The notes beneath the pieces were generated by a model. It saw nothing but the letters and a program-made list of their open reading frames with translations, searched no databases and was not told the DNA's origin. A stretch of DNA of 59,645 nucleotides from an uncultured Candidatus Saccharibacteria bacterium. Its GTDB lineage: Bacteria > Patescibacteriota > Minisyncoccia > Phycocordibacterales > UBA9973. This document shows positions 33,599-38,752 of the stretch, piece after piece; position 1 is the first letter of the stretch; each line of letters opens with the position of its first letter. Both the position numbers and the translations under genes were made by a program. The stretch lies in the NCBI GenBank assembly GCA_964626965.1, contig CAZVHB010000007.1, positions 1-59,645 on the forward strand. The letters are read 5' to 3'.

Positions 33599-34585
33599 AT
33601 GCTAGAATCCACGAGTAGGATACACTTATATCTGAAAGACTTTATGCTAGAACAAAGTATTAAAAATGGTAAGGATTTCTTGGATTTATTTTATGAACCA
33701 GAAATTGATGCTCATAACCTTACTGTAAAAACGAAGCTGAGCCTTTATATCCTCCGAATAGACGGTGGGCGTTTTGCATATGAAGCAATGAAGAAAGAAC
33801 TCGGCAACGCCGCAATAACATATGTTTTTTCGAGAAATAAGTATGAAACGGTTGATAAGAGCAAGCTACCTGAGCTTGTGCGAGAATCCCAAGATCTTTT
33901 CCGTAAGGCAGAGGTAAAACAAGGAGAAGGAGGAGAGTTGTTTCTCTATTGCCTACTTGAAACCCATCTAGGCGCACCAAAGATACTTTCAAAGATGGAG
34001 CTGAAGACTTCAGGTAATGACTATGTAAAGGGTGCCGATGGTATCCACCTACTTGATTTAGGTGAGGGTAAATTTCACTTGATCTTTGGAGAGTCCAAAA
34101 TGATTGCTGATGGAGAAGAAAAAAGCTCAAGCTTTCGTAAGGCAGTATATGATGCCTTTCAGTCCATCAAGAAAGTTGAAAAGGAAGGCATTAGTGGCGA
34201 AATTAGTTTGGTAGATTCAAACTTGATGAAGGAAACATTTTCAGATGAAGCAGTTTCTTATCTTAAAAAGATTATCAAGCCATCAGCCAGAGAGAACGAG
34301 ATAACAAAATCTAATGCGTTCGGTATTTTTATAGGGTATGAAATAGATATCAATGACTGGGATCTTCAACAAATGGAAGATGCTGATTTTGAAAAAAAGG
34401 TTAAAGAGGAAGTTAAGAAAATGGTTGAAGAAAGATATGAATATATTTTGGAGCAAATCACAAAAGAGGGTCTTGATGGATATCATTTTTACATCTACGC
34501 AATTCCATTTATTAAGAAAGGTGAAACTGGCATAGCCGATGTCAGGGAGGGCATTATTAAATACATTAAAAATGACCCTCGCTGA
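33599..34585 (+). CDS. hamA: Hachiman HamA-like protein (DUF1837, PD-(D/E)xK-type)
   Basis: 328 aa with GEGGELFLYCLLE...GADGIHLLD...LIFGESKMI (D...ExK). An alternative start is 33644. Overlaps the next gene by 14 nt. Confidence 0.7.
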   Translation: MLESTSRIHLYLKDFMLEQSIKNGKDFLDLFYEPEIDAHNLTVKTKLSLYILRIDGGRFAYEAMKKELGNAAITYVFSRNKYETVDKSKLPELVRESQDLFRKAEVKQGEGGELFLYCLLETHLGAPKILSKMELKTSGNDYVKGADGIHLLDLGEGKFHLIFGESKMIADGEEKSSSFRKAVYDAFQSIKKVEKEGISGEISLVDSNLMKETFSDEAVSYLKKIIKPSARENEITKSNAFGIFIGYEIDINDWDLQQMEDADFEKKVKEEVKKMVEERYEYILEQITKEGLDGYHFYIYAIPFIKKGETGIADVREGIIKYIKNDPR

Positions 34586-37178
34586 AACACTTAAACAAGA
34601 AATATTGACCGATGAGTATTTCATTAGTCTATTCCAGAAAGCAGAGAGGATTTCCGTATTTAATCTTTTTAAATTAGAACAAAAAGAGACTATTTCAGAT
34701 AAGGAATATAAAGACTTGATGCAATTTGCGGATATTCTTTCTCATTCCACTGATCCCAATGCTCGAAACAAAGCCTATAAAGTAATTGCGCTTCTGGTTG
34801 AACCATTCGGAAGAACCGAAAGCTTTCGGTTATTTTCTGGTGCAATATTAGCAAAGCTCGGTAATTTCCCAGCACTACAATTTCTTCGAGACAATCATGA
34901 TTATGTAGATCGGTTACCACTTGAAAGAGAAATCGAAAAAAGAGTTAAGTCAGAAGTACAAAAAACATCTAACGGAAAATATATATTTACTGATGCACAA
35001 TACAAAATCAGAAAGGAGCTAGAAGCTTTTGATTATTTTAGCTTCTCAGGTCCAACATCTATTGGTAAGTCTTTTATAATGAAAGACTATATTCGCTACC
35101 TGTTAAATAAAGACGAGTCCGTTGGCGGGTGTCTTGTAATTGTTGTCCCGACTCGCGCACTTATAACACAAGTAGTTGCTGAGTTGAGAAAAGAGATTGA
35201 TGACGAAACTGTTAATATCGCATCTCACCCTGTTGTTTCTAGTTTTTCCTTGCAAAGATACAAAGAGCATATCTTTGTCTTCACACCAGAAAGACTACTT
35301 AGCTATGTAAGTGGAGATAACTTAAGTATTAAGTATTTATTTATTGACGAAGCTCAGAAAGTTATTGCCGAGAACGATTCCCGAAGTTCCTTGTACTATC
35401 ATGCCATTTACGAAACGACTCGAAAGTATGCGACTAAAATAATCTTCGCATCGCCTAATATTCCTAATCCAGAAATTTTCTTAAAGCTATTTGAAAAAGA
35501 TCCAGCTGGTTGCCTTGCGGTTACAGATCAGACTGTGGCTCAGAACAGATATTTTGTCGATTTGAATGATAAGAAACTCTTTCTTTTTTCTGAGTTCGGA
35601 CAAAAAGAAGAGGTCGTAGGTTTTCCATCTTTCTCCAACTCAAACGATCTCATAAAGGAACTAGGTAAAGATGTAAATAACATTATTTACTGCAATGGTC
35701 CAAGTGAGACCGTTAGAAGAGCTAAGGATTTTGCATTAGGGTTAGAAAATGTTCCCTCTACTCACGAGCTTCGAGAGTTACTTGTATTCATTTCAGAATA
35801 TGTTCATAAGGATTATTACCTAATTGAGTGTCTTAAAAAAGGAGTAGCATTTCACCATGGCAAAATGCCACAGAAAGTCAGGAGAAAAGTAGAGGAGTTT
35901 TTTGCGAATAAGGATTCAACTCTAAGATATATGTTCTGCACCTCAACATTGCTTGAAGGAGTAAACCTGCCTGCAAAAAATATCTTTGTTATGAATGATA
36001 ATCATGGTTCGCATGATTTTGAAAAAATAGACTTTGAGAACCTTATTGGGCGAGCTGGTCGTTTGACTAAAGATTTTTCTGGAAATGTCATTTGTGTCAA
36101 AGATGATGTGAGGAGATGGGGCGACGGTGCTGAAGTTCTAAAAAAGATCCCCCTTGAGGCAGTGGATAGTTTTCTTATTAATAAACAGAAAGCAAAAAAG
36201 AAAGAGTTCCTAAATATAGGTAAAGCCTTAGGTAATACTGACCTTGCATCCAATCTGAAAGTTGGTCTCGCGGAGAACCTCGTTCACTACGCATCAATTG
36301 TTCTGCTTCATCATATAAACAATGAAAGCTCAGTTCTCAAGACTGGCTTCTTAGAAAAGAATAAGAGCGCAATCGAAATCCTGCAAAAAACACAATCTTC
36401 AAACAGGGTGCCGAGTGAAATTATAAAAGCTTCCTCAACAATCAAACCTGTATATCAAAACAAAGCTTTAGATTATATTGAAAAACATAAAGAGAATGCT
36501 GTACTCAATGTAAGCACAGAAAATAATGAACTTATTGTTCATGCTCTAGAAAGACTCTACGATCTGTATAACTGGGAAGTAGAAGAGGCTCGTGGACGAG
36601 ATCCTCTAATTCCTCCTGCTCTAGTGAAAGCAGGCTATGGAAAATCAAAGCTAAACTATTGGGCTATGTTGCTAAGAAACTGGACGAAATCAGAGCCTCT
36701 AAGTCGCCTGATTGGCTTTTCGATTACCTACTATACCGACAAGGGAGAAATTTGGTTCCAAGAGGAAGGAATTCCTAAGAAAGAGAAATTTATTGGTAAT
36801 CAAAAACAGATCAATATCATTATTGAAGAAATGATGAAAGATATTGAGAACGGTTTGCGATTTAAGATTGAAAAGTATTTCCTAAACTATTATCTTCTAT
36901 CAAAACATGTCTTGGGAGCTGAAAATGCAGGACAAGACTGGTCAGAATTTATCGAGTACGGAACGACCGATAAGAGAGTGATTGAATTGCAAAATATTGG
37001 CTTCTCACGCGGGACATCAAAACACCTGCTGGATAAATACGGCAACCTCTTTTCATTTAATAATGAAAGTCAATTGACGGCAGTTAATGAAGAAGAACTT
37101 CTTACTTCTTTTGATCAGAAAGACGAACACTATGAAGAGGTCAAGGAGATCTTTAGGAAAAAAGTAAACCATGAATAA
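34572..37178 (+). CDS. hamB: Hachiman HamB-like SF2 helicase
   Basis: ATG 34572. Motif I GPTSIGKS, II FIDEAQ, III ASPN, V TSTLLEGVNLPA, VI LIGRAGR. About 868 aa. Confidence 0.75.
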   Translation: MTLAETLKQEILTDEYFISLFQKAERISVFNLFKLEQKETISDKEYKDLMQFADILSHSTDPNARNKAYKVIALLVEPFGRTESFRLFSGAILAKLGNFPALQFLRDNHDYVDRLPLEREIEKRVKSEVQKTSNGKYIFTDAQYKIRKELEAFDYFSFSGPTSIGKSFIMKDYIRYLLNKDESVGGCLVIVVPTRALITQVVAELRKEIDDETVNIASHPVVSSFSLQRYKEHIFVFTPERLLSYVSGDNLSIKYLFIDEAQKVIAENDSRSSLYYHAIYETTRKYATKIIFASPNIPNPEIFLKLFEKDPAGCLAVTDQTVAQNRYFVDLNDKKLFLFSEFGQKEEVVGFPSFSNSNDLIKELGKDVNNIIYCNGPSETVRRAKDFALGLENVPSTHELRELLVFISEYVHKDYYLIECLKKGVAFHHGKMPQKVRRKVEEFFANKDSTLRYMFCTSTLLEGVNLPAKNIFVMNDNHGSHDFEKIDFENLIGRAGRLTKDFSGNVICVKDDVRRWGDGAEVLKKIPLEAVDSFLINKQKAKKKEFLNIGKALGNTDLASNLKVGLAENLVHYASIVLLHHINNESSVLKTGFLEKNKSAIEILQKTQSSNRVPSEIIKASSTIKPVYQNKALDYIEKHKENAVLNVSTENNELIVHALERLYDLYNWEVEEARGRDPLIPPALVKAGYGKSKLNYWAMLLRNWTKSEPLSRLIGFSITYYTDKGEIWFQEEGIPKKEKFIGNQKQINIIIEEMMKDIENGLRFKIEKYFLNYYLLSKHVLGAENAGQDWSEFIEYGTTDKRVIELQNIGFSRGTSKHLLDKYGNLFSFNNESQLTAVNEEELLTSFDQKDEHYEEVKEIFRKKVNHE

Positions 37179-37599
37179 AGAATTGATTGAAAAAGTAATT
37201 AACGACGCTTGTGAAATTCTTTATGCAGAGAATAAGAATTTAATTGATGAAAGAGCACACGAGAGAACTATTGTTAACGAGATGCTCCCATACCTTAGGA
37301 CGCATTTTGCCGAATATAAAGTTTGGTCTGAATACAACCGAGAGGGAGAGATCGGAAATAGACAATCCAAAACAGATCTTGATGGCAATATTATCGTACC
37401 CGATATCATAGTTCACGAGGTCGGTCCTACGGGTCGTAATCTAGTAGCAATCGAGGTTAAGGGATATTGGAATGATGAACCACGAGAGAGTGACGAGAAA
37501 AAGCTTAGAGATATTCAGCTTAAACATGGATATGAGTTTTTGTATCGCATTGAACTCGGTAAAAACGAACCTCAAGTAATAGAAATTCTACCTGTTTAA
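37171..37599 (+). CDS. Minimal PD-(D/E)xK nuclease-fold protein (142 aa)
   Basis: E...PD...ExK pattern: HERTIVNEM, VPDIIVHE, AIEVKG. ATGAATAA overlap with the hamB stop. Confidence 0.55.
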   Translation: MNKELIEKVINDACEILYAENKNLIDERAHERTIVNEMLPYLRTHFAEYKVWSEYNREGEIGNRQSKTDLDGNIIVPDIIVHEVGPTGRNLVAIEVKGYWNDEPRESDEKKLRDIQLKHGYEFLYRIELGKNEPQVIEILPV

Positions 37600-38517: not shown

Positions 38518-38560
38518 TAATTTAAAGTGACACGCGATTGTAATTTTATAAGCCTAATCC

Positions 38561-38752
38561 GTGTCACTTTTGTCACTTTTTATGAATCAAGAGGATAAGA
38601 AAAATCCTAAAAACTGGACTGAGGAAGAGCGAGACAGGGTTGTTGGTTTGTTTGATCTATTAATCAAAATGGATAAAAAGCAGAACCCTGATCTGTATAA
38701 GCTTCCGAAAGGTGTAGTGTTAGACGGACATGGAAACGAGGTAACTTTATAG
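38561..38752 (+). CDS. Small hypothetical protein
   Basis: The likely start is ATG 38582 (MNQEDKKNPKNW...). Uncertain gene. Confidence 0.3.
   Translation: MSLLSLFMNQEDKKNPKNWTEEERDRVVGLFDLLIKMDKKQNPDLYKLPKGVVLDGHGNEVTL

Follow-up and report, generated by a model that had tools for sequence, protein, structure and literature searches.

A Hachiman locus with a coupled PD-λ-3 A-like gene, and a probably separate downstream cassette, on a satellite-like island of a Saccharibacteria-type genome

The window analysed here is the whole 59,645-nucleotide stretch of contig CAZVHB010000007.1, from an uncultured Candidatus Saccharibacteria bacterium, and the subject is a Hachiman defence locus within it. 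Four open reading frames (ORFs) of the forward strand, hamA, hamB, gene 3 and gene 4, were confirmed with their overlaps at the coordinates given in Table 1; a preliminary description had read them as a single translationally coupled operon. The reading favoured here is that the locus is probably a Hachiman system with a coupled third gene related to protein A of the PD-λ-3 defence system, and that gene 4 belongs with a conserved 56-amino-acid ORF (p56) to a separate cassette. The hamA-hamB-gene 3 trio recurs without gene 4, gene 4 homologues are mostly found without the trio, and the divergence of gene 4 within the island is younger. Loci fetched for comparison are designated by L numbers.

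The Hachiman pair and its third gene

The identification of the first gene as DUF1837/HamA and of the second as HamB holds. The first gene scores 185 bits on the Pfam profile HamA (PF08878), for which the cut-off is 25 (E 2.1e-54), and the PADLOC profile HamA1 matches it over its full length (3e-90). PADLOC HamB1 matches residues 12-871 of the second gene to profile positions 1-844 of 845 (7.8e-273), and the Pfam domains DEAD and Helicase_C are also found there. The motifs on which the preliminary description relied are legible in the translations of hamA (GELFLY, GADGIH, FGESK), hamB (GPTSIGKS, DEAQ, SPN, LIGRAGR) and gene 3 (VPDIIVHE, AIEVKG). The D-GExK motif, described as the catalytic motif of HamA (there written D-GEXK), is intact (GADGIH...FGESK, reading D...GESK), as are helicase motifs I, II, III and VI of HamB. 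The ORF of hamB stands as described (34539-37178, + strand), but not its start at the first ATG: the ATG at 34572, which gives 868 amino acids and a 14-nucleotide overlap with hamA, is likelier because the PADLOC match begins at residue 12 and relatives have 863-869 amino acids. From their sequences, the two adjacent, overlapping genes are a canonical type I Hachiman pair, apparently a functional one. In published work, HamB is described as a sensor helicase that keeps the HamA nuclease in check while the DNA is intact and frees or activates it once damaged DNA is sensed; on that description, HamB would here be the helicase sensor and HamA the D-GExK nuclease effector. HamC (DUF3223), the marker of type II Hachiman, had no Pfam or PADLOC match in gene 3 or gene 4.

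The start codon of gene 3 does overlap the stop codon of hamB (shared sequence ATGAATAA), and the description of its product as a minimal PD-(D/E)xK protein is upheld by a conserved motif, a predicted fold and structural matches. The motif E31...P-D78...(E/Q)95-x-K97 is invariant across 28 close homologues, and the window has E31, D78 and E95-x-K97. The AlphaFold2 model (pLDDT 95) has a predicted topology that fits the PD-(D/E)xK core, defined for this comparison as an αβββαβ arrangement in which helix 1 carries an acidic residue, strand 2 a D and strand 3 the (D/E)xK. With this model as the query, the best Foldseek matches in the PDB were the DrdV endonuclease domain, the Cas4 proteins SSO0001 and Pcal_0546, RecU and Hjc (probability 0.9-1.0). 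The sole library match of gene 3 was PADLOC PD-Lambda-3_A (1.4e-13, near full length). The gene 3 family is considered homologous to PD-λ-3 A because hhalign aligns it with the 159-amino-acid E. coli protein A at 99% probability (E 8.5e-18, 28% identity).

PD-λ-3 was found in E. coli ECOR28 by Vassallo et al. (2022), whose supplement gives the accessions of three proteins, a length of 2759 bp and the label 'Nuclease, HEPN', and whose main text does not describe the components; the system later served as an abortive-infection control in another paper. A tblastn search with gene 3 led to a three-gene block on an E. coli plasmid, exactly 2759 bp long, that is made up of A, B (267 amino acids, Pfam Hypoth_Ymh/TIGR02391, with the HEPN motif RNPLAH) and C (477 amino acids, Mrr_cat), and the block is present in 31-45 of 5426 complete E. 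coli genomes. That this block is PD-λ-3 we infer from its having the same length and number of genes, from the label and from the PADLOC model; sequence identity to RCP74640-42 is not the basis. On one E. coli plasmid (NZ_CP084057; L088, 1-7708), the final BREX gene, brxL, lies about 3.6 kb upstream of the block, with an IS903B element in between, and the locus is a composite defence island of an IncFIA NDM plasmid. An embedded PD-λ-3 was considered for the window and rejected because components B and C are absent: PF09509 has no match in gene 4 or in 34 members of its family, and no Mrr-like protein is encoded among the window genes adjoining gene 4.

The trio of hamA, hamB and gene 3 was found in five divergent alleles (the window, L001, L091, L099 and L100), between which HamB is 70-81% identical and gene 3 is 55-77% identical. 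The ATGAATAA overlap is kept in four of the five, and two of them (L099 and L100) have no gene 4. The best-supported interpretation of these sequences is that HamAB and the PD-λ-3 A-like gene would constitute a three-gene variant that is not among the described variants found (HamC/DUF3223, HamMAB, Pez-Ham). In this subclade of Hachiman, the operon would hold a translationally coupled homologue of PD-λ-3 A that was acquired and then kept. Gene 3 might encode an accessory factor that acts at DNA ends or makes or binds nicks; it would either take part in making or detecting the damaged DNA by which HamAB is activated or add a second effector.

Relatives of gene 3 are not confined to Hachiman, as hamAB accompanies them in 5 of about 13 distinct contexts. 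Others lie between hsdM and hsdS of type I restriction-modification (RM) systems (L086, L087), after a Ppl-like ATPase (L084), at the end of a Wadjet-adjacent JetC-JetD-328 aa-gene 3 arrangement, at the end of a HORMA-AAA-DUF6602-gene 3 arrangement (L098) and after a Dam methylase; one further relative lies near a DpnII RM system, in a cluster of unknown kind. Gene 3 would be described as a promiscuous 3′-terminal add-on, of type I RM, HORMA, Wadjet-adjacent, Ppl-like and Dam methylase loci as well as of Hachiman.

Three of these contexts have features of their own. The gaps in hsdM-gene 3-hsdS are 2-3 nucleotides (for example L087, 1-1735), an unusual place for an extra gene of nuclease fold. 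In L098 (439-3086), the gene 3 homologue is 65% identical to that of the window and begins 4 nucleotides after a series encoding bacHORMA_1, an AAA ATPase and DUF6602; from its gene content this appears to be a defence locus, CBASS-like or of HORMA type, that has the same small nuclease appended on its 3′ side. A conserved cluster in L092 (4274-9536), seen also in L093 and L083, encodes proteins of 226 and 320 amino acids, the gene 3 relative, proteins of 221 and 143 amino acids, a trypsin-like protease and a protein of 313 amino acids; it adjoins a serine recombinase and a DpnII RM system and may be another uncharacterised defence locus.

Gene 4 and its probably separate history

The window was compared with L001 and L091 at the nucleotide level, and synonymous and nonsynonymous differences were computed by the Nei-Gojobori method. 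Identity is 81-93% in the genes for the small terminase subunit (TerS) and the methyltransferase, 75% in the spacer upstream of hamA, 68-75% in hamA-hamB-gene 3 and 89-94% in gene 4 and the 330 nucleotides after it, and the break falls exactly at the junction of gene 3 and gene 4. Synonymous sites are saturated in hamA, hamB and gene 3 (proportion of synonymous differences, pS, 0.72-0.87; nonsynonymous, pN, 0.13-0.19), and are not so in gene 4 (pS 0.27-0.43, dN/dS ~0.03) or p56 (pS 0.50-0.57, dN/dS 0.03-0.05); the synonymous divergence (dS) of 0.3-0.6 for gene 4 and p56 is much more recent than that of the trio. By these values, all five genes are under purifying selection. The sequences thus suggest that hamA-hamB-gene 3 is one deeply diverged cassette and that gene 4-p56 has the same, younger history as the island backbone; given the different divergence, the four-gene operon of the preliminary description would be a Hachiman variant of three genes with a separate cassette directly beside it. 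On its left, the divergent cassette appears to have its edge in the intergenic region between the methyltransferase gene and hamA (33266-33598), where nucleotide identity drops.

As described, gene 4 starts 6 nucleotides after the stop codon of gene 3 and encodes a helical protein of no known family: there was no match in Pfam, PADLOC, NCBIfam or PHROGs. Its 119 close homologues are all unnamed, and an exhaustive profile search extended the family to 607 clusters at 50% identity across many phyla. About 14 residues, mostly charged or aromatic, are invariant (W7, N9, E15, G52, E54, R55, K58, H82, R118, Y119, R121, T192, E194, K201). The AlphaFold2 model is confident (pLDDT 88) and predicted to be all-helical. 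Foldseek gave no match to it below E 0.01 in the PDB or BFVD, the G-protein-coupled receptors and other helical bundles that were returned being noise, and profiles of the full length and of the N-terminal domain gave nothing meaningful against PDB sequences. No member was found in IMG/VR viral contigs or in GenBank phages (INPHARED).

Eighty genomic loci of gene 4 were fetched, from Patescibacteria, Pseudomonadota, Bacteroidota, Bacillota, Planctomycetota and others. All four genes are together only in L001 and L002, both metagenome-assembled genomes (MAGs) of the candidate phyla radiation (CPR); 77 of the 80 loci have neither HamAB nor gene 3, and 78 have no gene 3, a profile hidden Markov model of gene 3 having found no match in them even with its filters off. 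The remaining locus (L013, Cellvibrionaceae) has hamA-hamB followed directly by gene 4. The co-occurrence of gene 4 with hamAB is therefore rare, comprising the island lineage plus this one locus; neither gene 3 nor gene 4 is wholly without hamAB elsewhere.

Gene 4 is preceded directly by GajA-GajB of Gabija in L004, L005, L007 and L075, and GajA adjoins it in L003 and L038. The closest relatives of the window's gene 4 outside the island lineage (83%, 62% and 55% identity) adjoin Gabija, not Hachiman. Proteins of the DUF262/GmrSD type precede gene 4 in L037, L056 and the plasmid L097, and on Bacillus conjugative plasmids gene 4 is solitary. A tight upstream neighbour on the same strand (within 60 nucleotides) is present in only 17 of 76 loci, and when the three neighbours on either side were clustered in all 80 loci, no family was found in more than six. 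The 115 immediate neighbours, searched against PADLOC and Pfam, are a heterogeneous set of defence and mobile-element genes. Among the neighbours of gene 4 are integrases, serine recombinases, type IV secretion system (T4SS) coupling proteins and genes for the partition and replication of plasmids. The gene 4 family would normally be monocistronic in variable or mobile regions, repeatedly landing immediately 3′ of NTPase/helicase-nuclease modules (Gabija, Hachiman, DUF262/GmrSD). Gene 4 would be an autonomous module for single-gene defence, exclusion or maintenance of a mobile element, and would ride on read-through transcription from hamAB instead of encoding a Hachiman subunit.

The candidacy of the 175-amino-acid protein of L004 and the 156-amino-acid protein of L006, each encoded upstream of gene 4, as hidden gene 3-like proteins was rejected, as they are unrelated to gene 3. 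The 175-amino-acid protein, which has no family match, is part of a GajA-GajB-175 aa-gene 4 block with overlapping gene ends that is the same in L004 (3896-8912), a Paceibacterota MAG, and L005 (224-5240), a contig binned as Gammaproteobacteria; the shared block reflects either horizontal transfer or mis-binning.

The preliminary description had placed a hairpin after gene 4. The hairpin is real, but it does not end the conserved block, as the conserved p56 starts 11 nucleotides after it. The 11-bp stem formed by its arms AAAGTGACACG (38524-38534) and CGTGTCACTTT (38560-38570) encloses a loop of 25 nucleotides, and a T-rich tract comes next. The hairpin has a folding energy of -19.7 kcal/mol (z = -4.1), which none of 200 shuffled sequences matched. 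A simple terminator scan did not call the site because the loop is too long for its rule, and a sigma-70 promoter scan gave counts at or below the shuffled expectation. Across five islands, the hairpin has a mean column identity of 96% and no compensatory changes; covariation lends it no support because the five sequences are too similar. It is likely a terminator or attenuator. The product of p56 (MNQEDKKNPKNWTEEERDR...) is 91-96% identical in L001, L002, L081 and L091; p56 accompanies gene 4, and the gene calls of L091 include it. The longer 63-amino-acid ORF that contains it (38561-38752) had no PHROGs match.

Weighing the readings of the locus

If the trio is a Hachiman variant and gene 4-p56 a neighbour, several observations are harder to accommodate. 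Gene 4 is only 6 nucleotides from gene 3, with no recognisable terminator between them, and the order of the four genes is kept in the window, L002, L081, L001 and L091, among which are at least three divergent alleles of the island (window, L001, L091). The three Hachiman and gene 4 proteins of L013 are each about 40% identical to those of the window, which would fit an old partnership of Hachiman with gene 4. The repeated placement of gene 4 on the 3′ side of helicase-nuclease systems could reflect a shared accessory role and not hitchhiking, and its younger divergence could result partly from gene conversion between islands instead of a separate origin. The neighbour census was made from crude ORF calls and covers immediate neighbours only. 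Family assignments, folds, gene order, co-occurrence and divergence patterns were observed, as opposed to the biochemical roles of genes 3 and 4, every one of which we infer.

The short gap before gene 4, the conserved gene order and L013 would suit the proposal that all four genes, or perhaps five with p56, are one Hachiman variant in which genes 3 and 4 encode subunits or regulators, such as a second effector and a sensor or inhibitor. It would also account for the ATGAATAA overlap, the gaps of 3-6 nucleotides and the single strong hairpin that follows only gene 4, and L013 and the Gabija-gene 4 loci sustain, at low probability, the idea of gene 4 as an accessory subunit of helicase-nuclease systems. 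We judge this proposal improbable, since it has to be set against the alleles L099 and L100, the scarcity of HamAB among gene 4 loci, the Gabija neighbours of the closest gene 4 relatives and a synonymous divergence of gene 4 far below that of hamAB-gene 3 in the same islands. A different way to keep genes 3 and 4 together is to regard them as an embedded second system, either a reduced PD-λ-3-like pair of nuclease and HEPN protein acting by abortive infection or a pair resembling a toxin and antitoxin. The clear homology of gene 3 to PD-λ-3 A, together with the 'Nuclease, HEPN' label and abortive-infection mode of that system, invites the comparison, as do weak Pfam matches to HEPN in 3 of 34 gene 4 relatives (best E 0.0025; the same Pfam/PADLOC scan gave weak DUF7103 matches, also in 3 of 34) and one low-ranked Foldseek match to a HEPN protein (probability 0.25). 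This pairing is very unlikely: outside this island lineage the two families are not seen together, gene 3 loci there having no gene 4 and the other 78 gene 4 loci no gene 3, and the Mrr-like C component is missing from the window. Gene 4 was rejected as a counterpart of PD-λ-3 B, with an hhalign probability of about 0.1% against both the single B sequence and a 12-sequence B alignment, and its alignment has no conserved Rx4-6H motif, of which RNPLAH in B is an example.

If gene 4 is separate from the trio, it need not be a defence gene. Alone or with p56, it might instead serve the backbone of a mobile element, as a regulator, in exclusion or maintenance or in countering defence, and be found beside defence cargo only because both occupy the same hotspots. 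Its tracking of the backbone and not of the cargo (TerS and methyltransferase 81-93% identical, gene 4 89-94%), its integrase, recombinase, T4SS and plasmid neighbours and its solitary occurrence on conjugative plasmids are consistent with such a function. Its absence from the viral contigs and phages searched, its repeated operon-like contact with genes of Gabija, Hachiman and DUF262 systems and its dozen invariant charged or aromatic residues, which suggest an enzyme over a simple regulator, argue the other way, and a non-defence function is accordingly thought unlikely, if not negligibly so.

A wider joint reading is possible but doubtful. In it, the PD-λ-3 A-like mini-nuclease would be an obligatory third subunit of Hachiman in this subclade and a portable accessory of Hachiman, type I RM, HORMA/CBASS-like and PD-λ-3 systems, and the gene 4 family would be either a new stand-alone anti-phage or exclusion protein or a universal 3′ accessory of NTPase-nuclease systems (Hachiman, Gabija, GmrSD-like).

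The island and comparison with known systems

Table 1. Features of the Hachiman locus and of the island that carries it (window coordinates)
Feature	Position	Strand	Description
hamA	33599-34585	+	328 aa; ORF, Pfam HamA and PADLOC HamA1
hamB	34572-37178	+	~868 aa likely; ORF open from ATG 34539 (879 aa)
gene 3	37171-37599	+	142 aa; minimal PD-(D/E)xK, PD-λ-3 protein A homologue
gene 4	37606-38517	+	303 aa; all-helical (predicted), uncharacterised family
hairpin	38524-38570	+	between gene 4 and p56
p56	38582-38752	+	conserved 56-aa ORF
intergenic region, divergent, methyltransferase gene (-)/hamA	33266-33598	.	presumed promoter region
island backbone upstream of hamA	27593-33265	-	Pfam, PHROGs, Rfam
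large serine integrase	27593-28966	-	Pfam/PHROGs
TerL	30177-31619	-	Pfam/PHROGs
TerS	31609-31998	-	Pfam/PHROGs
ParB-N6/N4 methyltransferase	31985-33265	-	Pfam/PHROGs
LOOT RNA (Rfam RF03000)	29067-29195	+	80 bits; gathering score 46.4
305-aa ORF	29258-30175	+	between integrase and TerL

The serine integrase, TerL, TerS and ParB-methyltransferase genes bear out the phage derivation of the island, and no capsid or tail genes are present in it; the element looks like a satellite or a remnant of a cryptic phage. The suggestion that the genome belongs to the CPR is likewise sustained: over 8.4 kb the window shares 96.6% identity with a Saccharibacteria MAG (L002), and the CPR origin is supported because assemblies of Saccharibacteria, Minisyncoccia and Nomurabacteria have this backbone upstream of hamA (it is seen in L001, L002 and L091). 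The type I Hachiman system would therefore be described as cargo of a satellite-like island of about 11 kb, bearing an integrase and a terminase, in a Saccharibacteria-type CPR genome. Similarity to the related islands extends past the hairpin to about 38845; downstream of p56 are two small unannotated ORFs (171 and 115 amino acids) and a gene for an AHSA1-like protein.

The LOOT RNA lies between the start of the serine integrase and the 305-amino-acid ORF of the island. A 52-nucleotide piece recurs, with 90% conservation, where the fetched stretch of the Minisyncoccia locus begins on the left (L001, 3-52). A GC-rich palindromic stretch (GCGTGTACGCACGC ... GCGTCAGC, 33380-33425) within the intergenic region upstream of hamA might, from its sequence, act as an operator or form an RNA element. 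Downstream of the island, at a distance of about 5 kb and in a region of higher GC content (0.43-0.48), is a single ORF of 3059 amino acids (43595-52774, + strand).

Hachiman is currently described as a two-protein sensor of genome integrity, with variants that have HamC, a nuclease-protease HamMAB or linked PezAT. The core finding here is undramatic, a normal Hachiman system with defence-island neighbours, and the locus appears to show that CPR bacteria, whose genomes are small, can carry on a satellite-like island a whole innate defence operon that is apparently functional. If gene 3 is indeed a conserved, coupled third gene of the PD-λ-3 A family, it would define a further Hachiman variant, would connect several other defence systems with a component, as yet uncharacterised, of an abortive-infection system of E. 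coli and would give a handle on the function of the small nuclease. The gene 4 family is large, phylogenetically broad and wholly unannotated, and, as it is found repeatedly behind helicase-nuclease systems, it is a reasonable choice for screens of defence genes.

The locus resembles type I Hachiman in that its first two genes fit HamA1 and HamB1 end to end, keep their motifs, and are adjacent and overlapping; it differs in the third gene that overlaps the hamB stop codon here and accompanies hamAB in the four other alleles of the subclade. The extra genes of the described variants are HamC/DUF3223 (type II), an upstream metallo-β-lactamase (MBL) nuclease with a protease-HamA fusion (HamMAB) and PezAT (Pez-Ham), and none of these variants carries a small PD-(D/E)xK gene downstream as this locus does. 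With PD-λ-3 it shares a homologue of the first protein, A, with E, D and ExK at the same positions, whereas PD-λ-3 also has B and C, neither of which is encoded here, gene 4 being unrelated to B. The Gabija loci L004, L005, L007 and L075 are similar in that a helicase/ATPase-nuclease defence operon has, directly after its last gene or overlapping it, a homologue of gene 4 (55-62% identical), and dissimilar in that the upstream system is GajA/GajB and that in L004 and L005 the unrelated 175-amino-acid protein occupies the position of gene 3. A broader precedent is provided by the nuclease-protease pairs that Hachiman, AVAST, Lamassu and DRT systems have recurrently acquired as modular accessory genes. 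Like them, gene 3 recurs with several unrelated systems (Hachiman, type I RM, HORMA, Wadjet-adjacent, PD-λ-3), as does gene 4 (Hachiman, Gabija, DUF262); unlike them, genes 3 and 4 belong to other protein families, include no protease and were not acquired as a pair.

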